NCBI GenBank assembly: GCA_964600785.1
Contig: CAZRKH010000091.1
Coordinates: 9,037 to 73,036, forward strand
Direction of reading: 5' to 3'
From: an uncultured Chitinophagaceae bacterium
GTDB lineage: Bacteria > Planctomycetota > Planctomycetia > Pirellulales > UBA1268
DNA: 64,000 bases
In this document: in pieces, positions 26,166-43,194 of the stretch
How positions within the stretch are numbered: position 1 is the first letter of the stretch
How the letters are laid out: each line of letters starts with the position of its first letter
Notes under the pieces: generated by a model
What the model was told of the DNA's origin: nothing
What the model saw: the letters and a program-made list of their open reading frames with translations, nothing else
The model's database searches: none
Program-made: the position numbers and the translations under genes

Positions 26166-27260
26166 TCAGCAGATCCGCGGCAGCTGCTCCCCGACCGGTA
26201 GCGGCACGACCCGGCTGCCCCCGATCGGCGTGCGTGCGGTGACCTTGCCGGCGGGCCGACGGGTGACCCGCCCGATGACCGCGGCGTTGCGACCCTCGGG
26301 CCGGGACCGCATCGCCTCGAGCAGCCTGCCTGCCTCGTCGCCGGCCACGATCGCCAGCAGTTTGCCCTCGTTGGCCACCAGCAGCGGGTCGAGCCCGAGC
26401 AGCTCGCAGGCCGAGGCCACTGCCGGGGCGACCGGCACCGCCGCATCGTCGATTTCGATGCCGACCGGCTCCCGGCCCGCGGCCCGCCTGGCGGCCGAGG
26501 CGAGGCTCGCGATTTCGTTGAGGCTCGTGGCCACACCGCCACGGGTGGGATCCCGCAGCAGCCGGATCCCGTCCGCCGCGGCGAGCATCTCCGCCACCAG
26601 ACCATGCAAGGCTGCGGTGTCGCTGGCGATCTCCGCCTCGAAGCCGAGGCCCTCCCGCAGGCTCATCACTGCCATCCCATGATCGGCGAGTGTCCCGCTG
26701 AGCACGACCGCATCGCCCGGCTCGATGCGGCCGGCGTCGAGATCGACCCCCTCGGGCACGACGCCAATCCCGGTGGTGTTGATGTAGACCCCGTCGCCGT
26801 GGCCCCGCTCGACGACCTTCGTGTCGCCCGCCACGATCCGCACGCCCGCCGCCGCCGCCGCCGCCGCCATGGCCGCGGTGATCCGCTCGAGATCCACGAT
26901 CGGCAGGCCTTCCTCGAGGATGAAGCCAACGGTCAGAAACCTCGGCACCGCGCCGCTCATCGCCAGGTCGTTGACGGTGCCGTTGACCGCCAGCTCGCCG
27001 ATCGAGCCGCCGGGAAAGAAGAGCGGCCGCACCACGAAGGAATCGGTCGAGCAGGCCAGGCGGCCGGGCAGCTCTCCGAGCACCGCCGAATCGCCGAGCC
27101 GCTCGAGCACGGGGTTGCCGAAGGCCGGCAGGAAGATTCGCTCGATCAGTTCCCCGGAGAGCAGCCCGCCCCCTCCGTGGCCGAGCACGATTCGCCCGGC
27201 AGAGCCGTCGGAGGTCGGGCAGGAGAACCCACTGAAGTCGATGGAAGCCCGCTCGCTCAT
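26166..27260 (-). CDS. hypE: hydrogenase maturation protein HypE
   Basis: ..RIVLGHGGGGLLSGELIE.., an AIR-synthase-like fold and the invariant C-terminal ..PRIC. Confidence 0.95.
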   Translation of the reverse strand: MSERASIDFSGFSCPTSDGSAGRIVLGHGGGGLLSGELIERIFLPAFGNPVLERLGDSAVLGELPGRLACSTDSFVVRPLFFPGGSIGELAVNGTVNDLAMSGAVPRFLTVGFILEEGLPIVDLERITAAMAAAAAAAGVRIVAGDTKVVERGHGDGVYINTTGIGVVPEGVDLDAGRIEPGDAVVLSGTLADHGMAVMSLREGLGFEAEIASDTAALHGLVAEMLAAADGIRLLRDPTRGGVATSLNEIASLASAARRAAGREPVGIEIDDAAVPVAPAVASACELLGLDPLLVANEGKLLAIVAGDEAGRLLEAMRSRPEGRNAAVIGRVTRRPAGKVTARTPIGGSRVVPLPVGEQLPRIC

Positions 27261-28343
27261 TTACCGGCCCGCGTGAAAGTAGGCGGCGCAGGCCCCTTCG
27301 CTGGAGACCATCGTCGCCCCCAGGGGCGTCCGCGGCGTGCACTCCCGGCCAAAGGCGGGGCACTCGTTGGGCTTGAGCGTGCCCTGGAGCACTTCCCCGC
27401 TGTGGCACAGCGGCGACTCCTCGGCCGGCTGGCCGGCCGCGGGAAACCGCCGCTGGGCATCAAAGCCGGCATAGGCCTCTGCCAGCTGCCAGCCGCTGGC
27501 GGGAATCGTGCCGATCCCCCGCCAGGCCCGGTCGACCGGTTCGAAGACCTCCGCGAGCACCGCCTGGGCCTCGCGGTTGCCCTCATCGGTGACTGCGCGG
27601 GCATAGGCATTCTCGACCTCGTGGCGACCCGCCTCGAGCTGGGCGATGGCGCGGCGGATCCCCTCGAGCAGGTCGAGCGGCTCGAAGCCGGTGATCACGA
27701 TTGGCACCCGGTGCGTCCGGCAGAGATCCGGATACTGCCAGATACCCATCACGCTGCAGACATGACCGGCCGCGAGGAAGGCATCGACCCGGCAGCCGGG
27801 AGAACGCATGATCGCGTCGATCGCCGGCGGCACGAGCACGTGCGAGACGATCGCCGAGAAGTTGGCAAGATCCCGGCTCGCGGCGAGCTTGATCGCCATC
27901 GCGTTGGCCGGGGCGGTGGTCTCGAAGCCGATCGCCAGAAAGACCACCTCGCGATCGGGATTCTCCGCAGCCAGCCGCACCGCATCGAGCGGCGAGTAGA
28001 CCACGCGGACATCCCCGCCGCGTCCCTTGACGTCGAACAGGTTTTCCCGGCTGCCCGGCACGCGGAGCATGTCGCCGAAGGAGCAGAAGATCACTTCCGG
28101 CCGGGCCGCGATCTCGATCGCCCGGTCGATCACCGACAGCGGGGTCACGCAGACCGGACAGCCGGGGCCGTGGATCATCTCCACGTTCTCGCCGAGCAGT
28201 TGATCGATACCGTTGCGGATGATCGAGTGGGTCTGGCCGCCGCAGACCTCCATGATCGCCCAGGGCCGGGTCGCACTGCGGCGGATCTCCGCCGCCAGCC
28301 TGCGGGCAGTGTCGGCATCGCGGTATTCGGTGAGGTACTTCAT
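27261..28343 (-). CDS. hypD: hydrogenase maturation protein HypD
   Basis: MKYLTEYRD...[21 protein letters not shown]...FETTAP....[10 protein letters not shown] are conserved HypD motifs. ATG at 28343 overlaps the hypC stop. Confidence 0.95.
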
Positions 28344-28612
28344 GGAGGGGTCTCGTCGGTGGCCCGCAGTTCCTCGAGTTCCTCCTCGAGGAGGCCGAGT
28401 TCTGCGAAGGTGGCAAGCGTCTGCCGGGCCGACTCCTCGTCGATGCGGCTGATCGCGAAGCCGACATGCACGATCGTGTAGTCGCCGACCTCGATCTCCG
28501 GCAGGTAGGCGAGGCAGACCTCCTTCACGACGCCGCCGAAGTCGACCTTCCCCATGCGGGTGCCGCGGTCCTCGTAGATCTCCCCGATGCGTCCGGGAAT
28601 CGCCAGGCACAT
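28340..28612 (-). CDS. hypC: hydrogenase maturation chaperone HypC/HupF family
   Basis: The N-terminus MCLAIPGRI (essential Cys2) and a 90-aa OB-fold size. Confidence 0.9.
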
Positions 28613-28615
28613 GCC

Positions 28616-29785
28616 TCACCTCCAGATCATCACGCGGTTGTTGCCGGAGTCGGCGATGGCGAGCGTGTCACCATGCTGGTGCAGCCCGTAGGGCCAGCAG
28701 AGCGAGTCGCTCGTCACCGCCTTCCAGTGATTTTCCCCTGCGGCGTCGAAATCTGGCTGGCCGAACACCGCGCGAGCCTCGCTGCCGGCGGTGACATTTG
28801 GCGGCAGCGGCCACTCGAGCACGCGGTTGTTGGCGGTGTCGGCCACCACAAGGAATCGTCCGTTGGCATTCTCGCCCCGGGAAAGCCCGTAGGGAAATCG
28901 CAGCCTCGCCGGTCCCTGCGGCCGGTAGGGAAACTCCCCGTTGGAGTCGAAGTCGGCCTGACCGAGGACGATCGTTGCCGGCATGTCGGCGGTCGGCTGC
29001 CCGGGAAACCCGAGGACCCGGTGGTTGCCCGCGTCGGCCACAAACAGCCAGGAGCGGTCACCGGCGATTCCATGGGGCCAGCGGAACGACGAGGCCGAAG
29101 GTGGTCCGCCGCGGTTCTCCTCGTGGGCTGAAAAGTCATCCTGGCCGAGCACGACATCCGCGGGACGGTCGTCCTCGGGCAGCCCGTTCCAGATCAGCAC
29201 CCGACGGTTGCCGGTGTCGGCCACGTGCAGCCGGCCGGCGATGAAGGCCAGACCGTAAGGCCAGCGGAGGCTGTCGGCGGCTGCTTCACCGCCGCGGTTG
29301 GGCTCGACCGCTTCAAGGTTCGGCTGGCCGAGGCAGCAGTCCGGCGGGGTGTCGCTTCGGGTGGGCAGTTCGTGCCACACCAGCACTCGGTGATGCCAGG
29401 CGTCGGCCACCAGCAGCCGTCCCTCGGCCACGATTGCCGCGGTGGGCAGATGCAGTCCGCCGGCCGGCCCGCGACCGGAAGCCGCCGGCCCCTCGGCCTC
29501 GAAGCCCGCCTGGCCGAGCACGATCGACGCGGCGGCGTGGTCCTCGGCGGGCAGGCCCTCCCAGATGAGCAGGCGGTGGTTGCCGGTGTCGCAAACGATC
29601 AGCCGCTGGTCGTCGAGCCACACGCCGCGGGGCGCGTAGAGCTGCGAAGCGGTCGGCATCGCCGCGGGCAGGGCCAGCCCGCCGGGAGCCGCCGCACCGA
29701 TCCAGCGGACCGGCCGCCGGCCCCCGGCATCCTCGCCGGCCGCCGTGGCGGACGGCGGTTCGACCGATGGCCCCTGTCTGCTCAT
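28616..29785 (-). CDS. six-bladed NHL-repeat beta-propeller protein (hydrogenase-locus accessory)
   Basis: Six repeats of the type ..L.VADTGNHRVLIW.. ([66 protein letters not shown]). ATG at 29785 overlaps the upstream stop (ATGA). Its stop lies 3 nt from the hypC start. Confidence 0.8.
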
Positions 29786-30681
29786 GACGGCCGCACCCAG
29801 ATCAGGCCCTCGCTGACCCGCAGCGGAAATGCTTCGAGCTGGCACTGCGGAGCGGTGAAGCATTCGCCGGAATCACTGTCGAAGCGGAAGCCGTGCCAGG
29901 GGCAGGTGATCGTGCCGCCCTCGTCGTCGCAGATACCACGCTCCAGCGGCATCCCGGCATGCGGGCAGGCATTCCGGAAGGCCCGCAGTCCGGCCCGGCT
30001 GGCGATCACAAGCACACTCGTCTCTCCCGCCTCGAAGGCCAGCAGCTCACCGGGCACGACCGCCTCGGCCGGCGGGCCGGCCATCCAGCCGGCCGCCTCG
30101 AGGCTCGCCTGATCGCCGGCGGGTGCCGGGGCGATCTGGAAGACCGCCGGCTCGGCGGCCAGCGGCTCGGCGGGCACCACCTCCACCCCCTCGATTTCCG
30201 GCACATGCTCTTTGAGTGATTCCTCCACGGTTGTGCGGAGCGTGACCGACGACATCGAGCATCCGTTGCAGCTGCCGGAGAGCTGCACGAAGGCTCGACC
30301 CTCGCGGACGTCGACCAAGGCCACGTCGCCACCGTGCGACTGGAGGTAGGGCCGTACCATTTCAATCACGCGTGCTACGCGGGTCTCGAGGTCGGCCCGC
30401 ACCAGGCCGTGCATCGCGAAGAGCGCATAGACCTCCGGCTCGGCGGCGAGTTCCAAGAGCAGCTCCTTGCCGCGAGGGTCGGCCTTGAGCAGCCGCACGA
30501 TCCTCGTCAGGCCCACCTTGTGAAACTCCTCGATCGCCGCCCGCAACGCGGTTGCCTTGCCGCGGTGCTCCGGCTCGAGGGCCGCCACCTCCGCCGCTGC
30601 CGCATCGACTGTCGCGGCGAGCCGCTCGAGATCGGCGGAGTGATCGGTCTGGTCGGGCTCGGCCTGATGATCGGTGGACAT
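29782..30681 (-). CDS. NifU(C-terminal Nfu)-Rieske [2Fe-2S] fusion protein (HucE/HhyE-like candidate)
   Basis: The central Nfu domain is ..IEMVRPYLQSHGGDVALVDV..AFVQLSGSCNGCSMSSVTLRTTVEESLKE... The C-terminal Rieske motifs are CPHAG...CPWHGFRFD. ATG at 30681. Confidence 0.8.
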   Translation of the reverse strand: MSTDHQAEPDQTDHSADLERLAATVDAAAAEVAALEPEHRGKATALRAAIEEFHKVGLTRIVRLLKADPRGKELLLELAAEPEVYALFAMHGLVRADLETRVARVIEMVRPYLQSHGGDVALVDVREGRAFVQLSGSCNGCSMSSVTLRTTVEESLKEHVPEIEGVEVVPAEPLAAEPAVFQIAPAPAGDQASLEAAGWMAGPPAEAVVPGELLAFEAGETSVLVIASRAGLRAFRNACPHAGMPLERGICDDEGGTITCPWHGFRFDSDSGECFTAPQCQLEAFPLRVSEGLIWVRPS

Positions 30682-30741
30682 GTGGGGGGATCGTTTGGGG
30701 TGTGCGGGTCCGAAGATTCTGTTGGCAGAGATCGGCAACGC

Positions 30742-31131
30742 TCAGACCGGCTGGTAGCCGGCCCGTTTGTCGAGGGTTTCGAGGGTCCTGGGGAGCAGCA
30801 CCGCGGCGAACACCGCCCGGGCGAGCAGGCCTGCCGCATCGCCGAGGGTTGCCGTGTCGGTCAGACCGTCAAACAGGTCGCGGTGCGGGAACACCGGCCG
30901 TCGGGCCAGCGCTGCGAGTACGAAGCAGGCCCCGTCAGGGTTGTCGAGCAGAAAATCGGCGAAGAAGGCGTCGGTGAATCCGCTCAGCCAGGTGCCTTCC
31001 CCCTCGGGGTCGTCCCGCAGCTTTTCCGCCGCGGCTTGCGGCCCGCGATGCCGCTCCTCGAGCCGGGCGGCATACCGCTCAGCGGCGGTCTCGAGGAGCA
31101 CGTCAAACTGTTGTCGCTGGTGGAGGTCCAT
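30742..31131 (-). CDS. hypothetical protein (129 aa) within hydrogenase operon
   Basis: ATG at 31131. Same strand and close spacing to its neighbours (41 and 60 nt gaps). I recognise no motif in it. Confidence 0.5.
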   Translation of the reverse strand: MDLHQRQQFDVLLETAAERYAARLEERHRGPQAAAEKLRDDPEGEGTWLSGFTDAFFADFLLDNPDGACFVLAALARRPVFPHRDLFDGLTDTATLGDAAGLLARAVFAAVLLPRTLETLDKRAGYQPV

Positions 31132-31172
31132 GGGGCATGTGGCTCCGCCGGGGCTGAGAGATCGTGGTGGAA

Positions 31173-32744
31173 TCAGAATAGTTCGTCGGCCCGCCCGCCC
31201 TCTCGGATCGCGTCGAGCTGCTGTTGGATCTGGTCGAGCAGTTGGCCGGTGGCCTGCGACTCCTCGCTGCATTCATAGGCACCGAACAGCCGGCGGGCTT
31301 CGGCGAGCTTCTCGATCGCCGGCTTGAAGATTCCCAGGTGGGCCAGGGCATTGGCCTGGTTGAAGAGCACCCTGGAATGGGCCACCGGGTCGCGGGCCCG
31401 AGACCTCACCTCCAGCACCTGCTCGTAGGCCTCGACGGCGTTGGCCAGGTTCTCTCTGGGGTGCGACGAGGGCAGGTATTGCAGGGCATTGGCCAGATTC
31501 ATCATCACGCTCGCCCAGCTGTCGGGATCCCGCTGGCGGTCACAGACTTCCAGAGCCCGGCGAAACGACTGCACGGCGATGCCCGTCCTCAGCTGATCGC
31601 TCGACTCGCCGCGGGGCATCGCCAGATAGGCCAGTCCGAGGCCGTTTTGGATCTGCCCGAACCATCCCGGACGGTTCTCGCGGTCGATGCCCGCCGCAAG
31701 GGCCCGCTGGTAGGCCTTGATCGCCTCGAGCAGCCCGCCCCGGCTGCCGGCGGCCGCGTGCTGGCGGGCCACGGCGAGCTTCATCCAGGCCTCCGCCTCG
31801 AGCAGCCCTCCCGCGGCGGCAGCGGCCAGTTCGGCGGCCTCGGCATACAACTCGCACAGTTCGCTCGGGGCTGTTTGCAGCGTGCCGGCCAGGTCAGCCC
31901 ACTGGATCAGCAGCGTCGCGGCAAACACCGGCGAGGGCTCGCGGGCCACCCTCAAGGCCCGTTCGAGCAGCTCGCAGGCCGCGGGCACGTTATCCCGCTC
32001 AATCGCGGCCGCCGCGGCGGTGAGGCCGGCAAGGGCCGCCAGTTCTCCATCGAGTGTGCCCACGGGCGGTGGCTCACCGCTGAGGCCGTGCGCAAAAGCG
32101 GCGATCTGGCCGAGTTCCTCAAGCCACGCATCGCCGGCTCGTGCGAGGTCTGCGAGGCTCTCGGGTGTGCCGCTGATCACGAAGCGGTTGTAGGCGTCCA
32201 GCGGTGTGTTGCCGTGAATCGCCGCAGCCGCCGCGGGCAGGTCACCCTCTGCGGCAAGCCTGAAGAACCGCCAGGCCCGCGGAACGGGCGTGTTCGCCTC
32301 GCCCCGCAGCAGGCCCGCGAGCGGCTCGCTCGCTTCGCCACTCTCCAGCGGCGGCAGCAGCAGATGCGAGGCTGGAAAGGGAAAGATGCCCACTGGCTGC
32401 GGCCGTGGCAGCCCGGCCGCGGCCAGGCCGACCCGCAGCCCGCCGGCCGACTCGTCCCAGACCGCGGTGTGGCAGCCGGTGGGCAGCTGGAAACCGAAGA
32501 CCTCCGCCACCAGCACGCTGCGGTCGCCGGCGGCGTTGCGTTGCTTGAGGATCAGGCCCCCGGCGGCATTGCCCCGGGTGGGCAAAAGCAGGAGTGTGTG
32601 CCGCTTGACGAGGGCCACCAGGGCGTCGTCGGGAAAGAACCGCTCCGCGTCGGCCCGCCGCAGGCGGAGGTAGCCGTCGGCGGCAATTTCGAGGCTGCAC
32701 TCCGCCGGCGGGGCGGGCGGGCTTGTTGTCTGGCTGCTCATCAC
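31173..32744 (-). CDS. TPR-like helical-repeat protein with distinct N-terminal domain (hydrogenase-locus accessory)
   Basis: The C-terminal about 250 aa shows TPR-like A/L/Y periodicity (..EAIKAYQRALAAGID.., ..AVQSFRRALEVCD.., ..AVEAYEQVLEV.., ..AIEKLAEARRLF..). The start (GTG 32744 or ATG 32741) overlaps the endopeptidase stop (GTGATGA). Confidence 0.65.
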   Translation of the reverse strand: MMSSQTTSPPAPPAECSLEIAADGYLRLRRADAERFFPDDALVALVKRHTLLLLPTRGNAAGGLILKQRNAAGDRSVLVAEVFGFQLPTGCHTAVWDESAGGLRVGLAAAGLPRPQPVGIFPFPASHLLLPPLESGEASEPLAGLLRGEANTPVPRAWRFFRLAAEGDLPAAAAAIHGNTPLDAYNRFVISGTPESLADLARAGDAWLEELGQIAAFAHGLSGEPPPVGTLDGELAALAGLTAAAAAIERDNVPAACELLERALRVAREPSPVFAATLLIQWADLAGTLQTAPSELCELYAEAAELAAAAAGGLLEAEAWMKLAVARQHAAAGSRGGLLEAIKAYQRALAAGIDRENRPGWFGQIQNGLGLAYLAMPRGESSDQLRTGIAVQSFRRALEVCDRQRDPDSWASVMMNLANALQYLPSSHPRENLANAVEAYEQVLEVRSRARDPVAHSRVLFNQANALAHLGIFKPAIEKLAEARRLFGAYECSEESQATGQLLDQIQQQLDAIREGGRADELF

Positions 32745-33223
32745 CCGACCTCCGCGGTGAGCCGGGCGAGCAGTCGCTCGGCGAGCCGATCGACCGCCGC
32801 ATCGACCGCGGGGGAGAGCCCTTCGCCCACCTCGTAGTTGACGCCTTCGATGAGGTAGGCGGTCACGCTCGCGGGGTAGTCGTCCTTGAGCAGCCAGCGG
32901 GCAAAGGCGATCGCATGGTCCCAGCGGAAGGCATGGAGGTTGATGCTGCCCAGGGGGGGCAGATTCTCAACCTCGTGGCCGGGCAGTTCGAAGGTCGCAC
33001 CGGGGTCGCTGCCGGAGGAGCAGGCATCGACCAGGATCACCTCCGGCACGCCTCGCATCTGGAAGGCGACGTCCATCCCGCCGGTGCCGCCGTCGGCACA
33101 CCGCACACCCACAGGCAGCCCCCGCTCCCAGAGCCGCCGGACCAGCACCGGCCCAGCCGCGTCGTCGCCCCGCAGCAGGTTGCCGCAGCCGATGACGAGC
33201 GTGCGGATCGGCCCGGAGTCCAT
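32741..33223 (-). CDS. [NiFe]-hydrogenase maturation endopeptidase (HyaD/HybD/HupD family)
   Basis: ..TLVIGCGNLLRGDDAAGPVL.....EVILVDA.....H.. are the family metal-ligand motifs (GDD, D, H). 160 aa. It starts 3 nt after the large-subunit stop. Confidence 0.9.
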   Translation of the reverse strand: MDSGPIRTLVIGCGNLLRGDDAAGPVLVRRLWERGLPVGVRCADGGTGGMDVAFQMRGVPEVILVDACSSGSDPGATFELPGHEVENLPPLGSINLHAFRWDHAIAFARWLLKDDYPASVTAYLIEGVNYEVGEGLSPAVDAAVDRLAERLLARLTAEVG

Positions 33224-33226
33224 CGC

Positions 33227-34852
33227 TCACCCCATCTCGCCGATCCGGAACTTCGCCAGTTCGCGGCCGGTCTTGCCGTCGAAGGTGTGCACCGTGCAGA
33301 CCAGGCAGGAGTCGTAGGAGCGGGCCACGTGGCCCATCTCCACCGGGTCGGTCGGGTCGGTGATCGGCGAGCCGATGAACGACTGCTCCATCGGCCCGTG
33401 CACGTCCTTGCCGTCCTGCGGGCCGATGTTCCAGGCTGTCGGTGTGACCACCTGGTAGTTCTCGATCTTGCCGTTCTCGATCACGATCCAGTCGGCGAGC
33501 GAGCCGCGGGCCGCCTCGGTGGCCCCAAAGCCCTTGCCGGAGGCGTGTTCCACCGGCTTGGTGTAGAAGTTTTCGTGGAGGTCAATTTCCGAGAGCCACT
33601 GCTGGGCGAGCTTGTAATACTTGCAGGCCTCGTGCATCCGGGCCATCACCCGCACCAGCACGCTCGGGCCGGCCTTGGTCACCGCATCGAGAAAGAGCGG
33701 GTCGAAATCCTGATGGGCCGCCGCTGCGGGCCTGCCCGCGATCACCTGCCGGGCCAGCGGCCCCGCCTCCAGTGGCATCGGCCCCTTGCCAGGCACCTCA
33801 TAGCGAGGGCTCTTGGCCCAGGAATACTTGCCCTCTTTGTGACCCTCGGCCGGATCGATCGGGTCGGTGACACCCTCCCAGGGATGCAGGTAGGTGTCAC
33901 CCCGGAAGAACGAATGGGCGGTACTCTCGCGGACATGCAGGTGGTCGAAGTCGTGAAACTCATCGCCATCGTAGACCCCGGCCCGGTTGATGAGGGCGGC
34001 ATTGCGGCCTTCGATCGTGGGTCGTTCGTAGAGTTCCGGCTGGAAGTAGGTGCCGGTGGCGAGAAATTTCCCGCAGCCGCCGCCGAAGCGATCGAGCCCG
34101 ATCGCCCTGGCGAAGTGCAGGAACATTCCGCAGTCGCTCCTCCGCTGGCTCTCGTTCTCTTCCGACCAGGCCCAGACATCGTCCCAGGTCTTGTTCTCCA
34201 TCCACCGCTCGATCGGGCAGCCGAGCCAGACCTTCTCCAGCCACTCCCGCTTCCAGTAGTCGAGAATTGCCGTGGCCCGGGTCACGTCGGAGAGGGTGGG
34301 GCCGCACATCACTCCGCCGGGGATCATGAAGCTCGAATGTGGCCACTGGCCACCGAAGATCGCGTAGACCTCCACCGGCTTGCCCGAGAGGGTCACTCCT
34401 GTCTCGTAGGAGGTACCCGTGAAGGGGGCGAACCGCCGCACGATCTCGTCGTATTCGGGCGCCGAGGCGTAGTTCTTGTTGGTCAGGTCGACGGCGAAGA
34501 GGGCATAGAACCACCGCGGGATCGACTGCAGGGTCTCGCAGCACTGACCGATGTTGCGAACCAGCGTCGCATTGCGGGGGACATGGGTCCGCCAGGCGGT
34601 GTCGAGGGCATAGGCGGCCTTGTAAAGATGGCTGCCCCCGCAGATGCCGCAGATGCGGGGCGTGACGATCAGGCCGGCCTGCGGATCCTTTCCCTTGAGG
34701 ATGATCTCGAAGCCGCGGAACATGCTCGCCTCGGTCCAGGCATCGGTGACGACACCGTCGGTGACCTCGATCCTGAGGTCGAGGTCACCCTCGACGCGGC
34801 CCAGCGGGCTGATCCGCATCGGAGTGGTGGTCGATTCGGTGGCGGTGGCCAT
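33227..34852 (-). CDS. [NiFe]-hydrogenase large subunit
   Basis: N-terminal RVEGDL, L1 motif TPRICGICGGSH and L2 motif RSYDSCLVCTVH, followed by a 19-aa C-terminal extension (TFDGKTGRELAKFRIGEMG) of the type removed by the endopeptidase. 541 aa. Confidence 0.95.
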   Translation of the reverse strand: MATATESTTTPMRISPLGRVEGDLDLRIEVTDGVVTDAWTEASMFRGFEIILKGKDPQAGLIVTPRICGICGGSHLYKAAYALDTAWRTHVPRNATLVRNIGQCCETLQSIPRWFYALFAVDLTNKNYASAPEYDEIVRRFAPFTGTSYETGVTLSGKPVEVYAIFGGQWPHSSFMIPGGVMCGPTLSDVTRATAILDYWKREWLEKVWLGCPIERWMENKTWDDVWAWSEENESQRRSDCGMFLHFARAIGLDRFGGGCGKFLATGTYFQPELYERPTIEGRNAALINRAGVYDGDEFHDFDHLHVRESTAHSFFRGDTYLHPWEGVTDPIDPAEGHKEGKYSWAKSPRYEVPGKGPMPLEAGPLARQVIAGRPAAAAHQDFDPLFLDAVTKAGPSVLVRVMARMHEACKYYKLAQQWLSEIDLHENFYTKPVEHASGKGFGATEAARGSLADWIVIENGKIENYQVVTPTAWNIGPQDGKDVHGPMEQSFIGSPITDPTDPVEMGHVARSYDSCLVCTVHTFDGKTGRELAKFRIGEMG

Positions 34853-34865
34853 GGGGTTCTCCTGT

Positions 34866-35837
34866 TCAGACGACGAACATGTCTTCCTTGGTCCAGCGGG
34901 GGGCGGCGAGCTTGGCGGCAGCGGCGTGGGCGAGGTAGCTCAGTTTGCCGGTGCCGGTCTGGCCGTCCTGGGGGATCACGCCGGCGATCTTCTGGGTCTT
35001 GAAGACCGTGCCGGGCATCAGGTCGTAGAAGGGAAACTCCGGCTCGGTGCAGCCGGTGCAGGGCATCCCCGCCCGGGTCTTCGACGACTGCCTGTTCCAG
35101 AGGATCCGATTGCAGGGGGAGTGGGTCATCGGCCCGCGGCAGCCAAATTCGTAGAACAGACAGCCGGTTCGCGTGCCCTGGCCGAACTCCTGGGTGTGCT
35201 GTTTGTATTCGTAGAACTGCACGCGGGTACAGCCGGTCTGGGTGAAGGTCTTGAAGAAAGTCTGCGGCCGCTGCAGATCATCCAGGGCGATGTCACCGGC
35301 CCGTCCGCTGGCGATCGCCACGAGGATCTGCGTGACCCAATCGGGATGGGCGGGGCAGCCGGGAATGTTGATCACCGGCAGCCCCCACTTGCTCTTGAAG
35401 CCCGCCCCGAGATAGCCGCCGCGGTTCTTCTTGAGGTATTGCAGCCCGGTTGAATCGGAGGGGTTCGGCGCGGTCGCCGGGATGCCGCCCCAGCAGGCGC
35501 AGTCACCCAGGGCGACCACGGCATTGGCCACGCCGGAAAGTTCCGCCACCCACTCCTTCATCGGTCGGTCGGCAAACATGTTGAAGCGGCCGGTGCCGTG
35601 GGGCGCCTGGATGACGGTGCCCTCGAAAACGAAAATGTCGAGCTGTCGCCTGCCCGCGATGATGTCGCCGAGCATCGACTTGACATGGTCGCCCAACTCC
35701 AGGCCCAGCGAGGGATGCCAGAGCACGTCGATCCCGAAGTCGGTCACCAGGTCGCATGCGCTCGGCTCCTCGGCATTGAGAAACGACATCGTGTTGCCGC
35801 TGCAGGCGCCGCCCTGCAGCCAGAGAAGCGTGGCCAT
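34866..35837 (-). CDS. [NiFe]-hydrogenase small subunit, no Tat signal peptide
   Basis: The ATG at 35837 gives MATLLWLQGGACSGNTMS.. with no twin-arginine leader. FeS-ligand blocks are GDCACWGG, PGCPAHP and ..GCLFYEFGCRGPMTHSPC...MPCTGCTEP. 323 aa. The rest of the 822-aa track ORF is antisense to hypA/hypB. Confidence 0.9.
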   Translation of the reverse strand: MATLLWLQGGACSGNTMSFLNAEEPSACDLVTDFGIDVLWHPSLGLELGDHVKSMLGDIIAGRRQLDIFVFEGTVIQAPHGTGRFNMFADRPMKEWVAELSGVANAVVALGDCACWGGIPATAPNPSDSTGLQYLKKNRGGYLGAGFKSKWGLPVINIPGCPAHPDWVTQILVAIASGRAGDIALDDLQRPQTFFKTFTQTGCTRVQFYEYKQHTQEFGQGTRTGCLFYEFGCRGPMTHSPCNRILWNRQSSKTRAGMPCTGCTEPEFPFYDLMPGTVFKTQKIAGVIPQDGQTGTGKLSYLAHAAAAKLAAPRWTKEDMFVV

Positions 35838-35985
35838 GATTGTGCTCGCTATGCGGGTGAGGCGGGTGAGGCTCGGTGGTGCTGTGACGTCTCCGGAAGC
35901 CACACGAGGTCGCCTGGCGGCATCCGCCCTGAGCCCCGGCGGTGAATCGCACCCAATCCCTGACGCCGCTAGATTATAGGGGAGC

Positions 35986-36007
35986 GTGTTTCTCGATTGC
36001 AAAACAC
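35986..36007. promoter_or_regulatory. inverted repeat GTGTTT-N10-AAACAC in divergent hydrogenase/hypAB control region
   Basis: Perfect 6-bp arms at 35986-35991 and 36002-36007. It lies 29 nt upstream of the hypA ATG, in the 198-bp gap between divergent operons. Confidence 0.25.
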
Positions 36008-36035
36008 CCCGGCTCACGCCGCCTCGGAGGCCGCC

Positions 36036-36386
36036 ATGCACGAACTCTCGATCGCCACACGGCTGGTGGAAATGGTCGGCGAGCAGCTGGCTGCCAGCGG
36101 CGGGCGGGCCGGCAGGATCACCCTCCGGATCGGCCGGCTCTCCTGTGTCCACGAAGACTCGCTGCGGTTTTCCTTCGATCTGGTCCGCGAGGGGACCCCC
36201 GCGTCCGAGGCCACGCTCGAGATCGTGCAGCTTCCGGTGCGGGTCTATTGCCAGCGGTGCGATGACGAGTTTGAACTGCCGGGAATCCAGCGATTCATCT
36301 GCCCGTCCTGCGGCAGGCCCAGCGGCGACATCCGCCAGGGCCGGGAGCTCGACTTGGAGTCGATCGAAGTCCTCGAGACGACATGA
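36036..36386 (+). CDS. hypA: hydrogenase nickel-insertion protein HypA
   Basis: MHELSI (MHE nickel site) and a zinc ribbon CQRC...CPSCG. GGAGG lies 6 nt upstream of the ATG at 36036. Confidence 0.9.
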   Translation: MHELSIATRLVEMVGEQLAASGGRAGRITLRIGRLSCVHEDSLRFSFDLVREGTPASEATLEIVQLPVRVYCQRCDDEFELPGIQRFICPSCGRPSGDIRQGRELDLESIEVLETT

Positions 36387-36449
36387 CGGCATGACGACAT
36401 CAATCCGACACGAACCTGCAGAAACGCCACCAACCTGGAGAATTCCCGC

Positions 36450-37172
36450 ATGAGCCCCGCGTCTGACACCGCCTGTGGCCCCCGCATCCTCGAGGTGCGG
36501 ACGAAAATCCTCAAAAAGAACGACGAACTCGCCCGCGAGATGCGGCACCGCTTCGAGGCGGCCGGTGTGCTGGTGGTCAACATGGTCTCGAGCCCCGGCA
36601 CCGGCAAGACCTCGCTGCTCACCGAAACCCTGCGTCGGCTGCATGCGGCCGGTGAGCCGACCGCCGCGGTGGTGGGCGATCTCGAGACCGACAACGACGC
36701 CCGTCGGCTCGCCGAGAGCGGCGTGCCGGTGCGGCAGATCATGACCCACGGGCTGTGCCATCTGGAGGCGGACATGCTCCAGGCGGAGCTGGATGCCTGG
36801 CGGGCCGAGGGCCTCGGGGTCGAGAGCCTGCGGTATCTCTTCGTGGAGAACGTGGGCAATCTCGTCTGCCCGACGAGCTGGGATCTCGGAGAGTCGGTGC
36901 GTGCGGCGCTGCTCTCGGTGACCGAGGGGGAAGACAAGCCGCTGAAATACCCCGGCCTCTTCAACACCGCCGACGTCGCCGTGATCACCAAGGCCGATCT
37001 GGCCGATGCCTGCGAGTTTGACCGGGGCTTGGCAATGGCCAACATCGAGCGGGTCCGGCCCGGCATGCCGGTGATCGAGACGAGCATCAAGTCGGCCGCG
37101 GGGATCGACGAGTGGCTCGCGATCCTCGCTGAGCAGCGGGAGCGACTGGTTGAGGGCCGTGCGGGGGCCTGA
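36450..37172 (+). CDS. hypB: hydrogenase nickel-insertion GTPase HypB
   Basis: P-loop SSPGTGKTSLL, ..ENVGNLVCP.. and ..ITKADL.. (G-domain motifs of the HypB/UreG SIMIBI class). Confidence 0.9.
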   Translation: MSPASDTACGPRILEVRTKILKKNDELAREMRHRFEAAGVLVVNMVSSPGTGKTSLLTETLRRLHAAGEPTAAVVGDLETDNDARRLAESGVPVRQIMTHGLCHLEADMLQAELDAWRAEGLGVESLRYLFVENVGNLVCPTSWDLGESVRAALLSVTEGEDKPLKYPGLFNTADVAVITKADLADACEFDRGLAMANIERVRPGMPVIETSIKSAAGIDEWLAILAEQRERLVEGRAGA

Positions 37173-37182
37173 CTGCCGAACC

Positions 37183-38754
37183 TCAGGGCAACACCCGCTC
37201 GCCGACGGCGGTGTTGAGCTGGAACATCGAGCGGCGGTGTCGCACCAGGGCCTCGAGATACTGTCTCGAGATCTCGCCGTAGGCCCGCTGAGCCTCGATC
37301 TTCGAGATCGTGCCGGCCGCGCCCGGTTCGGCACCCCGCAGGGCGAGTTCCAGGTTTTCCCGGGCCGCCGGAAGGATCTCCTCCTCGATCCGCCCGAGCG
37401 TCGCGAGCGTCACGTCGTAGGCCGCCTCGGCCCGCTGCACCTCGAGCATCACCTGCCGTTCGAGATTGGCCAATTGGGACCTCGTCTGCAGCACGGTGTG
37501 TTCGGCCCGGGCGATGTTGCCCTGGTTGCGATTGAAGACCGGCAAGGGAAGCGTGCCCCCCATCGCCCAGGAGTAGGAGGCGCGGTCGCCGGGATCGAGG
37601 CCCTCCTGGGCGGTGAACGGCTGGTAGAGCAGGAAGGCATCGTCCATGCGATTGGCCCGGGCCAGCCGCACCTCCGAACGGGCCCGCTCGACGCCCAGGC
37701 GGAACGCCACCAGGTCGGGCCGGCAGGCCTGAGCGCGTGCCACGAGTTCGTTGACTGGGGGAATCTGCAGCCGCTGCGAGCGGAGCCGGCCGCGGATCGG
37801 GAATGTTTCCGCCTCTTCCGGCGGGATTGCAAGCAGCGCCGCGAGGGTTCGCATCGCGTCGTCGTAGGTCTCCCGGGTCTCGAGCAGCGTGAGGTCGGTG
37901 CTGTCGATCTGAATCTCGACATTGTTGACCTCGGTCTGGTTCAGTTCACCCCGCTGCACGCGGGCCTCGGTGGCCCGCTTCTGTATCTCCAGATTCTCCA
38001 TGCCCGCCTCGAGAAAACGGATCGAGGCTCGTGCCGCCAGCACGTCGGCCCAGGCCGTGTAGAGGTTGTCGATCTGGATCCGCACCGCATCCTGAAAGAG
38101 GGCCTCGGTGACCCGCTGGGCACGGGTTGCCACGTCGATCCGCCGCTGCCGCTTGTTGTTGATGTCGAGCGGCAGCGTGATGTTGGCGTCGTACTGCGTC
38201 GGCCCGCCACCGCTGCCGGCGAAATTGCCATACGGCACCATCGAGGCGTCGGTGTAGATCAGGGGATTGCCCCGCAGGCCGGCGGTCAGCAGGTCGGCCC
38301 TGGCTTTTGATATTTCCATTTCCTGGGCGCGGAGTTCGAGGTTCTGGCTCAAGAGCCGCTCGATCGCCTCGGCGATCGTCATCCCGTCGGCCGGCTCGGG
38401 AATGATCGCCTCGGGCTGCCCCAGCCGGCCGCCGAGGGGCAGCGGTTCGGCCTCCCCGGCCACCGGCGAGAATGATTCGATTCTGACCACCGGTTCGGGC
38501 TTGAAGGGCTCCGGCGGCTGGGTGATCCCCCGCGGAACGCGGGGATAGTTCGGGCCCGGTCCGACCGGAATCACCGCCTCGATCTGGCCGCCGCCGTCGA
38601 TGTCGACCGCCCCGCTGGCTCCCGGCGGTGGCGGCAGGGGAGAGGCGGACGGATCACCCGGATCGGCCCCGGCAGGCGACGACGCCAGGCAGACCAGCAG
38701 GCAGCCGCAGGCAACCCGGGCGGCCGAAAGCGGGCTCGTCTGCTGGCGGTTCAT
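37183..38754 (-). CDS. TolC-family outer-membrane efflux protein
   Basis: Signal plus Pro-rich linker, then the two OEP repeats (..TIAEAIERLLSQNLELRAQEMEISKARADLLTAG.. / ..LVARAQACRPDLVAFRLGVERARSEVRLA..). Confidence 0.8.
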   Translation of the reverse strand: MNRQQTSPLSAARVACGCLLVCLASSPAGADPGDPSASPLPPPPGASGAVDIDGGGQIEAVIPVGPGPNYPRVPRGITQPPEPFKPEPVVRIESFSPVAGEAEPLPLGGRLGQPEAIIPEPADGMTIAEAIERLLSQNLELRAQEMEISKARADLLTAGLRGNPLIYTDASMVPYGNFAGSGGGPTQYDANITLPLDINNKRQRRIDVATRAQRVTEALFQDAVRIQIDNLYTAWADVLAARASIRFLEAGMENLEIQKRATEARVQRGELNQTEVNNVEIQIDSTDLTLLETRETYDDAMRTLAALLAIPPEEAETFPIRGRLRSQRLQIPPVNELVARAQACRPDLVAFRLGVERARSEVRLARANRMDDAFLLYQPFTAQEGLDPGDRASYSWAMGGTLPLPVFNRNQGNIARAEHTVLQTRSQLANLERQVMLEVQRAEAAYDVTLATLGRIEEEILPAARENLELALRGAEPGAAGTISKIEAQRAYGEISRQYLEALVRHRRSMFQLNTAVGERVLP

Positions 38755-38884
38755 CGGTCGGTGTCCTGCGGCGAGGGCTGCGTGTGCGGACGATTCTCCT
38801 GGCGAATCGACCCTGCGGGTCGTATCGATGATATCGGTCGTGCCGGCCCGGGGCCTTGAAAGCGTTTCGGCTGCCGAGTCGAGC

Positions 38885-39640
38885 TCAGAAAGAGCCCAGA
38901 TTGAAGTTCACAAACGCCCCGAACGGCCCGACACCGATATTCATGCCCGAGGAACGCTGGGTGTCGGAGAACGGCGGCGAGCCATCGGCGTTGCCGCCGC
39001 GGTAGGGGGAGTAGGCCGCGGCGCGGCTACGGGAGGCGGCCGCGGCCGCGGAGGCGGCGGCTGTCTGCTGGCGGTTGGTGTCGGCCGCCTCGGCAAGGGC
39101 CTGCCGTCGCTCGTCGAAGGCCTGCTGACGCTGGCCGAGGGTGGCCCGCTTCCGGCCGATCCGGTCGATCTCCTGCTGCAGCTGGGCCGCCGACATCGAC
39201 GCGGCGTCGGGAAGCTGGCGGAGCTCCGTCGCCCGCTTGCGGTCGGACATCACCGAGAGATACTCCCCCAGCCAGGCCTTGGCGTCGCGGGCCTCGGGGG
39301 TTTCCAGGATCGCGAGCTTGGCGTCGAGGTCGTCGAGGAGATACTCGAGTTCCGCCGCAGTCATGGCCATCACCCGCTCGTTGAAGTCGGCCTTGATTCG
39401 GGCCACCTCCTGCGGCGTGTAGATCTGCTGGCTGTCGAGCCACTGGCCAAACTCGAAGATCGCCCGCTGCCAGCGATCGCCGTGCATGATCTCGGCCCGC
39501 CGGGCGAGGTCGTCATCGGCGGCGGCGGCCGGCTCGGCGGCGGCCGTGCTTCCGGCAAGCACGACGGAAAAAATCGTCGCGGCTGCGGCGATGGGGAGCC
39601 GGAAGCGGGACAATGCGCGGGTGAGGGCATGTCGGGTCAT
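38885..39640 (-). CDS. secreted coiled-coil protein, unknown function
   Basis: ATG at 39640 overlaps the upstream stop (ATGA). It has a signal peptide (..IAAAATIFSVVLAGSTAAA), a Q/R/E/A-rich helical middle and a Gly/aromatic C-terminus ..GMNIGVGPFGAFVNFNLGSF. Confidence 0.55.
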   Translation of the reverse strand: MTRHALTRALSRFRLPIAAAATIFSVVLAGSTAAAEPAAAADDDLARRAEIMHGDRWQRAIFEFGQWLDSQQIYTPQEVARIKADFNERVMAMTAAELEYLLDDLDAKLAILETPEARDAKAWLGEYLSVMSDRKRATELRQLPDAASMSAAQLQQEIDRIGRKRATLGQRQQAFDERRQALAEAADTNRQQTAAASAAAAASRSRAAAYSPYRGGNADGSPPFSDTQRSSGMNIGVGPFGAFVNFNLGSF

Positions 39641-40608
39641 CGTGATCCTTGCGGCGTGGGGGCATTGCCCGACTTGCGGAGCATGATCAGGTCGACCGGC
39701 GGGATGCGGTCGTCGCCGATGTCGGTCGGCAGCGACTGCCATCGGCAGCGGTTTGGGCCATCGGGGGTGTAGATGTTCAGCGAGGTGTGCTGTGTGCCGT
39801 CGGGATCGATGGTGCGGGCCTCGGCCACCCAGCTGCGGCCCTCGCGGTGCCATTCGGCCTCGCCGCGGGTGCCGTCGGAGCCGAACTTCCAGGAGTGGAT
39901 CGTTTTGCCGATCGGATCCCAGCCGATCCACTGCGTGACCCGCATCGGCGGAGCCTCGGCCGAGCGGGTGATCTTCATCACGCGAACCAGGTAGCTGCGG
40001 CTCTCGTTCCAGCGGGCGGCAACCTCGATCGCCGGGCCGGCTCCGTTCTCGGCCGAGTCGTCGCCGTCGGCGTCGTCGACCACCCGCCAGCTGCCGGTCA
40101 TCCAGTCGAGATCGGCCAGGGTCGCTCGGCCGTCTGCCGGTTCGACGGCAGCCTCCCGCACCGCGGCGAGTTTCCAGCGGCCTTCGTGGCGAACCCAGGT
40201 CGCCGCGAATCGTCCCCGCAGCGGCTCACCCTCGGGAGGCAGAATCTCCACGCTGCCGTCCTCGATGGCGGTGTCCGGCCCGAGAAAGCGGATCGACGTT
40301 TCGGTCATTCGGATGCGGGGCAGGGCGGCGGCACCGGCCGCTGCGGCCACCTCGCCGGCGGGAATCCGGTTGCCATCGGCATCGACGATGTCGCCCTCGG
40401 GCATCCACAGCGAGGCGAGGGTGCGGCCATCCCCCGCCTCAACCGCCTCGCGATAGGCCTTGGAGGCGGCATGAATCGCCGCGGTGTCATCGGCCACAGC
40501 GAGTTGACCAACGACTGACAGGCCGAGCAACACCAACACAGCCTGCGGCAACGCAGCCTGCGGCTTGCCACCCTCGGCCGAGGTTCTCCGCCTGCCTTTG
40601 AAATGCAT
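39637..40608 (-). CDS. secreted tandem NTF2-like (SnoaL/DUF4440-type) protein
   Basis: Signal peptide, then two repeats with a DUF4440-like pattern (..AIHAASKAYREAVEAGDGRTLASLWMPEGDIV... and ..DLDWMTGSWRVV..). Confidence 0.55.
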   Translation of the reverse strand: MHFKGRRRTSAEGGKPQAALPQAVLVLLGLSVVGQLAVADDTAAIHAASKAYREAVEAGDGRTLASLWMPEGDIVDADGNRIPAGEVAAAAGAAALPRIRMTETSIRFLGPDTAIEDGSVEILPPEGEPLRGRFAATWVRHEGRWKLAAVREAAVEPADGRATLADLDWMTGSWRVVDDADGDDSAENGAGPAIEVAARWNESRSYLVRVMKITRSAEAPPMRVTQWIGWDPIGKTIHSWKFGSDGTRGEAEWHREGRSWVAEARTIDPDGTQHTSLNIYTPDGPNRCRWQSLPTDIGDDRIPPVDLIMLRKSGNAPTPQGSR

Positions 40609-40758: not shown

Positions 40759-43194
40759 TCACCGTCGTGCCAGCACCGCTTGGCCCAGCGAGAGCCCGCC
40801 GTCGTTGGGGGGCACGCGGTGGTGGGTGAGCACCGCGAGGCCCGCCTGGTCGAGCCGGGCGATTGTCAGCTCCGTGAGCCGCGCATTTTGAAAGACGCCA
40901 CCCGTCAGGCCCACGGCTTCGGCGGCACAGCCCGCCGCGAGACGAACGGCCACCGCCGCGATTCCATCGGCCACCGCTTGATGGAAGGCCGCCGCAATGG
41001 CTTCCGGCGGCTCGCCGGCGGCCGCATCGCGGGTCATCGTGTCGATGAGTTGCTGCCAGCCGAGTGAGAACACCGCGTCAGAAGCCCCTGCGTGGGTGCC
41101 GGCTGGATGCGTGCTCGTGCTATTTTTGTCGGCTGCCTCGGGCAGGGAGAAGGCGTAGCGGAGCTTTCCGCTGCCGGCCGGATTCCCGCTTGCGGCCGCC
41201 TCCAGCCGCATCGCCGGCTCGGCTTCGTAGTGGGCATGGTGGCAGAGACCCGTGATCGAGGCGACCGCATCAAACAGGCGGCCCATGCTCGTCGTGGGCA
41301 GGCAGTTGAAGCCGCTGGCCAGCTGGCGGTGAACCACAGCCAGTTCCCGGGGGCCCGCGGGCGGCCCTCCCGGCCAGAGCCGGCACCTGTCGGCGGCGGG
41401 CATGATGCCAGCCGCGGACGCCACCGCCAGGGCGGTTCGCCAGGGATGGCGAATCGCTGCATCGCCCCCGGGCAGCGGAAAGGGAGCCAGGCGGGCCGCC
41501 AGCCGGGCCCGGCCCCGCTCGACCACGAAAAACTCACCGCCGGCGATCGTGCCGTCACGGGCATAGCCGGTGCCATCGAAGCAGGCCACCACCACGGCTC
41601 CGGCGGAGATGCCCAGGCCGTGTTCGGCCAGAAGCGAGGCCGCATGGGCCTCGTGGTGCTGCAGCTGCACCAGCGGAATCCCTCGGGCCGTGGCAAATTC
41701 GCGGGCCCAGCCAGTCGAGAGATAGCCGGGGTGCAGATCGGCGGCCACCCGCTCAGGAGCAATCCCGAAGAGCTTCATCAGATGCTCGGCGGCGCCGGAG
41801 AGCGCCTCGAGTGACTCCGGGCTGCCAAGGTCGCCGATATGCTGGCTGAGGATCGCCTCGCGGCCGCGTGCCAGGCAGAGCGTGGCCTTGAGTTCCCCGC
41901 CCACGGCGAGCACCGCCGGGCCGTCATCGGCGAGCCGGATCGGCAGCGGGGCGAAGCCGCGGCTGCGGCGGACCGGCACCGCCGTTCCCGCCACGCACCG
42001 CACCACCGAGTCGTCGCAGGCGACGTGGATCGGCCGGTCATGCAGCAGGAAGGCGTCGGCCAGTCCGGCCAGGCGTGTCACGGCCTCTCGATTCTCGCGG
42101 GCGATCGGCTCCTCCGAAAGGTTGCCTGAGGTCATCACCAGCGGTGGCAGGCCCTCACAGAGCATCGCGTGCAGCGGTGTGTAGGGGAGCATCACGCCGA
42201 GAAAGCCGTTGCCCGCGGCGGCCAGTTCGGCCACGACGAGCCCTTCGCCGTGCGGCCTCCCTTCGCCGTGCGGCACCCCTTCGCCGTGCGGCATTTTGAG
42301 CAGCACGATTGCTTTGGCCGGATCGGTCAGCAGACGGGCCTCTTGCTCGCTGATCGCGGCCAGCCTGCGGGCCGTCGCCAGGGAGTCTGCCATCACCGCC
42401 AGCGGCTTGCTGCCGCGGCCCTTGCGGGCCCGCAGCCGGGCGACCGCCTGCGGGTTGGTCGCGTCGCAGGCGAGATGAAAGCCGCCGAGACCCTTGATCG
42501 CCAGAATCCCGCCGGCCAGCAGCCGCGAGCGGGCGTCGGCAATCGCCGTCTCGCCGAGGCGGCCGGCGGCGGGCCGTTCGATGGTCAGGCCTCCGGCCTC
42601 GTCAGCCGCGGCCAGCCAGACCACCGGCCCGCAGTCCGGGCAGGCAATCGGCTGGGCGTGGAAGCGGCGGTCGGCGGGGTCGGTGTATTCGCTACGGCAG
42701 GCCTCGCACATCGCAAAGCGGTCCATCGTGGTCCGCGGACGGTCATAGGGCAGGGCGGTGATGATCGTGTAGCGGGGGCCGCAGTCGGTGCAGTTGGTGA
42801 ACGGGTAACGGTGGCGGCGGGCGGTGGCATCGGCGACCTCGGCGGCACAGGCGGGGCAGGTGGCGATGTCGGGTGGCAGCGTGGCATGCCCCTCGGCGAT
42901 CGGGTCACCGTGGCGGCCGCTTGCCAGGATCGCAAAGCCCTCCTCGACGCCCAGCGGAGAAAGCGGCTGTTGGTGCATCGCCTCGATCACCGCCAAAGGC
43001 GGCCGCTCGCGGCCGATCGCCGCGCTGAATTCCGCAATGCTCTGCGGCTCCCCCTCGACCTCGATCGTCACGCCATCGGCATCGTTCTCCACCCAGCCAG
43101 ACAGGCCGTGACGACGGGCCAGCCGCCAGATGAAGGGACGAAAGCCGACCCCCTGCACGATGCCGGTGATGCGGAGCCTGCGGCGTGCGGTCAT
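40759..43194 (-). CDS. hypF: carbamoyltransferase HypF
   Basis: Acylphosphatase domain (..GIVQGVGFRPFIWRLA..), two CxxC-x18-CxxC zinc fingers (CPAC..C.DCGPRY / CEAC..CPDCGP), a YrdC-like domain and a Kae1-like domain. 811 aa. Confidence 0.95.
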   Translation of the reverse strand: MTARRRLRITGIVQGVGFRPFIWRLARRHGLSGWVENDADGVTIEVEGEPQSIAEFSAAIGRERPPLAVIEAMHQQPLSPLGVEEGFAILASGRHGDPIAEGHATLPPDIATCPACAAEVADATARRHRYPFTNCTDCGPRYTIITALPYDRPRTTMDRFAMCEACRSEYTDPADRRFHAQPIACPDCGPVVWLAAADEAGGLTIERPAAGRLGETAIADARSRLLAGGILAIKGLGGFHLACDATNPQAVARLRARKGRGSKPLAVMADSLATARRLAAISEQEARLLTDPAKAIVLLKMPHGEGVPHGEGRPHGEGLVVAELAAAGNGFLGVMLPYTPLHAMLCEGLPPLVMTSGNLSEEPIARENREAVTRLAGLADAFLLHDRPIHVACDDSVVRCVAGTAVPVRRSRGFAPLPIRLADDGPAVLAVGGELKATLCLARGREAILSQHIGDLGSPESLEALSGAAEHLMKLFGIAPERVAADLHPGYLSTGWAREFATARGIPLVQLQHHEAHAASLLAEHGLGISAGAVVVACFDGTGYARDGTIAGGEFFVVERGRARLAARLAPFPLPGGDAAIRHPWRTALAVASAAGIMPAADRCRLWPGGPPAGPRELAVVHRQLASGFNCLPTTSMGRLFDAVASITGLCHHAHYEAEPAMRLEAAASGNPAGSGKLRYAFSLPEAADKNSTSTHPAGTHAGASDAVFSLGWQQLIDTMTRDAAAGEPPEAIAAAFHQAVADGIAAVAVRLAAGCAAEAVGLTGGVFQNARLTELTIARLDQAGLAVLTHHRVPPNDGGLSLGQAVLARR

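Follow-up and report, generated by a model that had tools for sequence, protein, structure and literature searches.

The open reading frame at 34866-35837 on the minus strand of the window (the whole 64,000-nucleotide stretch of DNA that was analysed) is, as judged from sequence comparison, an ordinary HucS orthologue, i.e. the small subunit of a Tat-less, cytosolic uptake hydrogenase of group 2a (Huc type). With this assignment, the best explanation of its ligand set is that the protein very probably carries three [3Fe-4S] clusters. The asparagine and glutamine at the ligand positions and the all-[3Fe-4S] relay of Huc have already been published and are not new. The locus may tentatively be regarded as a HucM-independent variant of Huc: HucM would have been lost at least twice, in Planctomycetota and in Mycobacteriaceae, each time with the same six changes in HucS, and the quinone would be reached differently.

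Assignment of HucS and layout of the locus

The product of the reading frame was compared with the HucS of Mycobacterium smegmatis (MSMEG_2262; 7UUR, 7UTD, 7UUS, 8DQV) using HMMER. Residues 2-323 aligned with residues 1-322 of 7uur_D/7utd_B (E = 1e-174) without a single gap, 236 of the 322 positions being identical (73%), and the two proteins share their length and residue numbering. The motifs GGACSGNTMSF and TFTQTGCTRVQF are the same in both. The Pfam domains Oxidored_q6 and NiFe_hyd_SSU_C were found in the product. Translation of the minus-strand frame gave the N-terminus MATLLWLQGGACSGNTMSF; the protein starts with MATLLWLQGG, which is aligned with residue 1 of mature HucS, and has no Tat signal, the in-frame stretch upstream of the start being a spurious high-GC reading frame. 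The neighbouring genes were assigned as follows.

34866-35837, minus strand: hucS, small subunit of a group 2a [NiFe]-hydrogenase, 323 amino acids, no Tat leader (HucS match and Pfam)
33227-34852, minus strand: hucL, large subunit, 541 amino acids (E = 6e-262 to HucL, 7uus_A)
32741-33223, minus strand: hydrogenase maturation endopeptidase (PF01750, TIGR00072)
28616-32744, minus strand: Huc accessory block, with the same gene order in relatives across phyla; its genes are the next four
31173-32744, minus strand: TPR-like protein
30742-31272, minus strand: reading frame of 176 amino acids without a family match
29782-30738, minus strand: NifU-Rieske fusion of the HucE type
28616-29863, minus strand: NHL-repeat protein
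26166-28619, minus strand: hypD (extended at its N-terminus, where hypC is probably included) and hypE
35838-35996, no strand: divergent intergenic region of 159 bp between hucS and hypA, without a hucM-like gene
35997-37172, plus strand: hypA (35997-36386) and hypB (36450-37172)
40759-43194, minus strand: hypF

Orthology with HucS is concluded from the E value, the ungapped alignment over 322 residues, the common ligand motifs and the HucL match. In HucL the L1 motif RICGICGGSH (66-75) and the L2 motif DSCLVCTVH (514-522) are intact, the latter being followed by a C-terminal tail of 19 amino acids. The set of accessory genes typical of Huc (endopeptidase, TPR, NifU-Rieske/HucE, NHL and hyp genes) is present in the window, and its order agrees with the group 2a locus layout and the association of HucE with NHL described previously (PMC7784904). 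The window thus shares with M. smegmatis Huc the HucL partner, the accessory genes and the absence of a Tat leader, and differs from it in its host, a planctomycete, probably of the Pirellulales, rather than an actinobacterium.

The nearest relatives of the window HucS, at most 94% identical, are encoded in metagenome-assembled genomes (MAGs) of Pirellulales/Planctomycetota, and in the HucS tree the protein falls inside a planctomycete clade of a multi-phylum group 2a radiation. The distribution of the enzyme is patchy. In a survey of 20 related genomes a Huc-type small subunit was found in just one (G012, of the same family and a different genus, with a HucS 92% identical) and in none of the five congeners, which suggests horizontal gain or repeated loss.

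Two details of the hyp region were also recorded. The hypD reading frame (27261-28619) is 452 amino acids long and its HypD domain begins at about residue 95-104; the part before it is probably a separate hypC or the result of a mis-extended start. Positions 37183-40608, between hypB and hypF, contain genes for a TolC-like protein, a secreted coiled-coil protein and a protein of the DUF4440/NTF2-like type. Since hypF directly adjoins hypB in the closest relatives (L001, L003), these genes seem to have been inserted into the hyp region.

Iron-sulfur ligands and cluster type

The ligand positions were identified by HMMER alignment with the small subunit of Desulfovibrio fructosovorans (1yqw_A) and by a MAFFT alignment with seven diverse small subunits. 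Both placed the same residues in the same columns: Asn15 under the second cysteine of ECTGC and Gln200 under the histidine of VHDNC.

35793-35795, minus strand: Asn15, codon AAC, at the position of the second proximal-cluster cysteine (HMMER and MAFFT)
35238-35240, minus strand: Gln200, codon CAG, at the position of the distal-cluster histidine (HMMER and MAFFT)
35355-35804, minus strand: span of the proximal cysteines C12 (35802-35804), C113 (35499-35501) and C161 (35355-35357), also containing the non-ligand Cys115
35049-35231, minus strand: distal cysteines C203, C226 and C233, medial cysteines C242, C260 and C263, together with Lys253, K212 and Y229

Codons and columns alike therefore bear out the two substitutions claimed in the initial annotation, as well as its statement that the other cysteine ligands are present and that the medial site has three: all nine were found, at 12/113/161 (proximal), 203/226/233 (distal) and 242/260/263 (medial). 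The fourth medial position, equivalent to Pro238 in the D. fructosovorans alignment, is Lys253. Mutation of Pro238 to Cys turns the medial cluster into a [4Fe-4S] cluster (PMC6695573). The pattern of group 2a small subunits, namely Cys to Asn, His to Gln and Pro to Lys, is thus present in full as N15, Q200 and K253, and the complete set C12-x2-N15, C113, C161, Q200-x2-C203, C226, C233, C242, K253, C260 and C263 is shared with M. smegmatis HucS.

The periplasmic group 1 enzymes (D. fructosovorans 1YQW, D. gigas 1FRV and D. vulgaris MF 1H2R) have the same fold, the same order of the twelve ligand positions and a three-cysteine medial cluster; in contrast to the window protein, to which they are about 30-35% identical, they have a Tat leader, Cys at position 15, His at position 200 and [4Fe-4S] clusters at the proximal and distal sites.

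The three clusters of the group 1h enzyme Hhy are all [4Fe-4S]. This group (Hhy/HofK, Cupriavidus necator, 5AA5) likewise comprises high-affinity, O2-insensitive enzymes that act on atmospheric H2 and have a non-cysteine residue at one proximal position, but this residue is Asp instead of Asn, the distal His is kept and the match to the window protein reached merely E = 1.7e-27. Representatives with Asp in column 15 and His in column 200 were also seen in the search of all library representatives. More generally, small subunits less than about 50% identical had C or D in column 15 and H in column 200; the hits of this search were mostly fragments, informative only for the states of these two columns below that identity.

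Among the 80 closest genomic relatives (74-94% identical, from at least eight phyla including Planctomycetota, Acidobacteriota, Gemmatimonadota, Chloroflexota, Actinomycetota, Verrucomicrobiota, Rhodothermota and others) neither N15 nor Q200 varies, and the same holds for C12, C113 and C161; just 147 of the 323 HucS columns are invariant in this set. A second set, independent of the first and made up of 120 representatives (90% clusters), has both residues in all 117 members that cover the positions. Such invariance across 80/80 relatives and 117/117 representatives points to selection rather than drift, in keeping with the earlier view that the substitutions are not random. The proposal would have been weakened had HucS-type sequences differed here, or had a nearby residue been able to complete a set of four ligands; all of them share Asn15 and Gln200, and the sole spare ligand nearby, Cys115, has a counterpart in M. 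smegmatis HucS.

Cys115 (35493-35495, in DCACWGG) lies two residues past C113. It is kept in 77 of the 80 close relatives, and its column holds Thr in two more distant representatives that are 71-75% identical. The idea that it could be a concealed fourth ligand of the proximal cluster was rejected: the M. smegmatis protein has the same cysteine (DCACFGG) and the map shows a [3Fe-4S] cluster.

For M. smegmatis Huc, three [3Fe-4S] clusters in HucS were established by cryo-EM at 1.52 Å resolution and by EPR, and the exclusively [3Fe-4S] relay was tied to tuning of the enzyme potential for atmospheric H2 (Grinter et al., 2023; PMC10017518). This agrees with the description of that structure in the initial annotation. 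Its suggestion of a possible all-[3Fe-4S] relay in the window protein is supported by homology to a HucS of 73% identity with identical ligand motifs. The rule from which it had argued, that three ligands per site denote a [3Fe-4S] cluster, is unsafe when used alone, since the HupS of Nostoc punctiforme with the same Asn and Gln has been reported to contain two [4Fe-4S] clusters.

The HupS case is one ground for an alternative in which Asn15 and Gln200 are true fourth ligands, through O or N, so that the proximal and distal clusters would be [4Fe-4S] and the medial cluster alone [3Fe-4S]. HupS, also of group 2a, has the proximal Asn, distal Gln and medial Lys of the window protein (Cys to Asn at proximal position 2, His to Gln at distal position 1 and Pro to Lys at the medial site; 2014, Table 1, PMC4070099). 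According to reviews, EPR of the heterologously expressed protein gave two [4Fe-4S] clusters and one [3Fe-4S] cluster (PMC4463661, PMC6695573) despite the strictly conserved Gln, and the absolute conservation of the two residues, which shows that their side chains are important, would be equally compatible with ligation and with second-sphere tuning. Native Huc, however, with identical motifs and 73% identity, has three [3Fe-4S] clusters at 1.52 Å, and when reduced with H2 it gives no EPR component of a reduced [4Fe-4S]+ cluster (PMC10017518). The window protein is also much nearer to HucS than the HupS proteins of cyanobacteria would seem to be: these proteins, whose Asn/Gln state was taken from the literature, form a separate group 2a radiation (PMC7784904), and none occurred among the 80 closest genomic relatives or the 120 representatives. 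Ligation by Asn15 and Gln200 is accordingly regarded as unlikely; given the HupS report, cluster nuclearity may depend on context or preparation. That the two residues reflect neutral drift or decay of a non-functional hydrogenase gene is considered negligible in probability, the reasons being an unbroken frame, intact Ni-Fe motifs and other ligands, the constancy of both residues over at least eight phyla, and a maturation operon that is complete and keeps its synteny; no evidence in favour of decay was found.

With the three-[3Fe-4S] assignment, the Ni-Fe site of HucL would split H2 and the electrons would then pass along three high-potential [3Fe-4S] clusters in HucS. Each site would offer only three cysteines, its fourth position being Asn15 at the proximal, Lys253 at the medial and Gln200 at the distal cluster. 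As the potential of a [3Fe-4S] cluster would be higher than that of a [4Fe-4S] cluster, the enzyme would be biased towards H2 oxidation at trace H2, and electrons would leave the distal cluster for menaquinone at K212/Y229/Y301. The cluster types, potentials and electron acceptor given here for the window organism are predictions by homology.

HucM and the surroundings of the quinone site

In M. smegmatis, HucM (DUF1641) is encoded directly upstream of hucS; it scaffolds an 833-kDa oligomer, HucS8L8M4, arranged around the DUF1641 stalk, and pipes menaquinone from the membrane (PMC10017518). Compared with that holoenzyme, the window enzyme keeps the contacts to the menaquinone head group (K212, Y229 and Y301 of Huc are K, Y and Y, and Y301 is kept in 80/80 relatives), whereas HucM is missing from both locus and genome. 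Searches of the 92%-complete genome that contains the window gave no match with mycobacterial HucM, with a profile built from 54 HucM loci or with PF07849. A tblastn search of the whole window, the hucS-hypA interval included, with five planctomycete HucM-like queries disclosed no hucM remnant, all hits being noise off the locus with E ≥ 0.019. HucM itself was identified in a Mycolicibacterium locus by its match to 7uus_Q (E = 1.3e-51).

HucM-like genes were found in the loci of 54 of the 80 relatives. The usual layout outside Actinomycetota is a hucM-hypA-hypB operon divergent from hucS; in the window, unlike most relatives, hypA lies 159 bp from hucS and no hucM-like gene precedes it. In ten other genomes whose Huc loci lack hucM (four Planctomycetota, five Mycobacteriaceae and one unclassified actinomycetote of the same clade as the Mycobacteriaceae) DUF1641 was absent genome-wide in 10/10, and it was detected in all six hucM-positive control genomes. 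The 176-residue reading frame at 30742-31272 was considered as a replacement for HucM and rejected, since it matched nothing in PDB, Pfam or NCBIfam and is also encoded in HucM-bearing loci.

The HucM-like proteins outside Actinomycetota are about 280-300 amino acids long and align with mycobacterial HucM in two stretches arranged in tandem (L005, L006, L008, L009, L011, L012, L014, L024 and others). This suggests an internal duplication with a single C-terminal DUF1641 motif.

In the HucS tree most of the HucM-less loci (L001-L004, L007, L022 and a subset of L045-L075) are gathered in two separate clades, one of seven planctomycetes including the window and one of 14 members mostly labelled Mycobacteriaceae. 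Each has 100/100 support and a long stem, and the sequences around it in the tree are HucM-positive ones from the same phylum. Three loci without a flanking hucM (L010, L015 and L061) fall outside both clades and were assessed at the locus level. Record titles suggest that many of the MAGs in the two clades come from freshwater lakes; the genomes are small (2.8-3.8 Mb).

HucS columns that distinguish each HucM-less clade from HucM-positive sequences were counted, 13 in the planctomycete clade and nine in the mycobacterial clade. Six are changed in both (209, 285, 292, 293, 297 and 298), against 0.36 expected by chance (hypergeometric p ≈ 9e-8). The corresponding positions in the window are given below.

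34935-34964, minus strand: HucS residues 292-301, GQTGTGKLSY, leading up to the menaquinone-binding Tyr301 and differing from the HucM-associated consensus VP[ET]G[TS]DH..Y
34944-34964, minus strand: codons of residues 292-298
34983-34985, minus strand: codon of residue 285
35211-35213, minus strand: codon of residue 209

The changes F209Y and S285A are common to the two clades; V292, P293 and D297 are replaced, and H298 has become K or Q. None of the 54 HucM-positive sequences departs from P293 or D297. Relative to the HucM-associated consensus the window protein carries F209Y, S285A, V292G, P293Q, D297G and H298K. In the independent 120 representatives F209 co-occurs with P293/D297, and Y209 with their replacement. 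No such convergence was seen in HucL, where none of the distinctive columns (seven and nine) is shared between the two clades.

The six columns flank K212 and Y301 and border the HucS segment 298-311, which together with HucM residues 63-78 forms the menaquinone pocket (PMC13433803). From their location they are candidate positions of a HucM/quinone interface. A parallel is provided by NDH-2, in which enzymes that dock onto a DUF1641 tube have a different C-terminus from enzymes binding directly to the membrane (PMC13524794). Since the window genome lacks HucM, the quaternary structure and quinone delivery of M. smegmatis Huc cannot be transferred to the window enzyme unchanged. The data suggest that quinone might be reached, for example, by free HucS2L2 lobes whose C-terminal segment, being more basic, would dock them directly to the membrane.

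The remodelled surroundings of the quinone site at 209, 285 and 292-298, the missing DUF1641/HucM gene and the Rieske-type protein encoded in the operon would also accord with a relay that is all-[3Fe-4S] as in Huc and, without HucM, feeds a protein partner (NifU-Rieske/HucE-like) from the distal cluster instead of menaquinone. We consider this improbable, because the three residues that hold the menaquinone head group are all kept and because HucE-type proteins are also encoded in HucM-bearing loci, so that they are not a specific replacement in HucM-less ones. Loss of HucM with differently organized access to quinone is put forward at the tentative level stated at the outset. The papers found to mention HucM contained no description of HucM-less Huc clades, which is not proof of novelty.

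Implications for Huc-type hydrogenases

The window HucS adds one planctomycete orthologue to an enzyme for which Planctomycetota are already among the 13 phyla listed, and the observation on its cluster ligands re-derives a published result on group 2a small subunits and the Huc relay. If natural HucM-less lineages of Huc are real, they would offer a ready-made comparison for the role of the DUF1641 scaffold in oligomerization and in the extraction of quinone from the membrane, and they could pinpoint which residues of HucS are responsible for binding HucM or for reaching the membrane directly.
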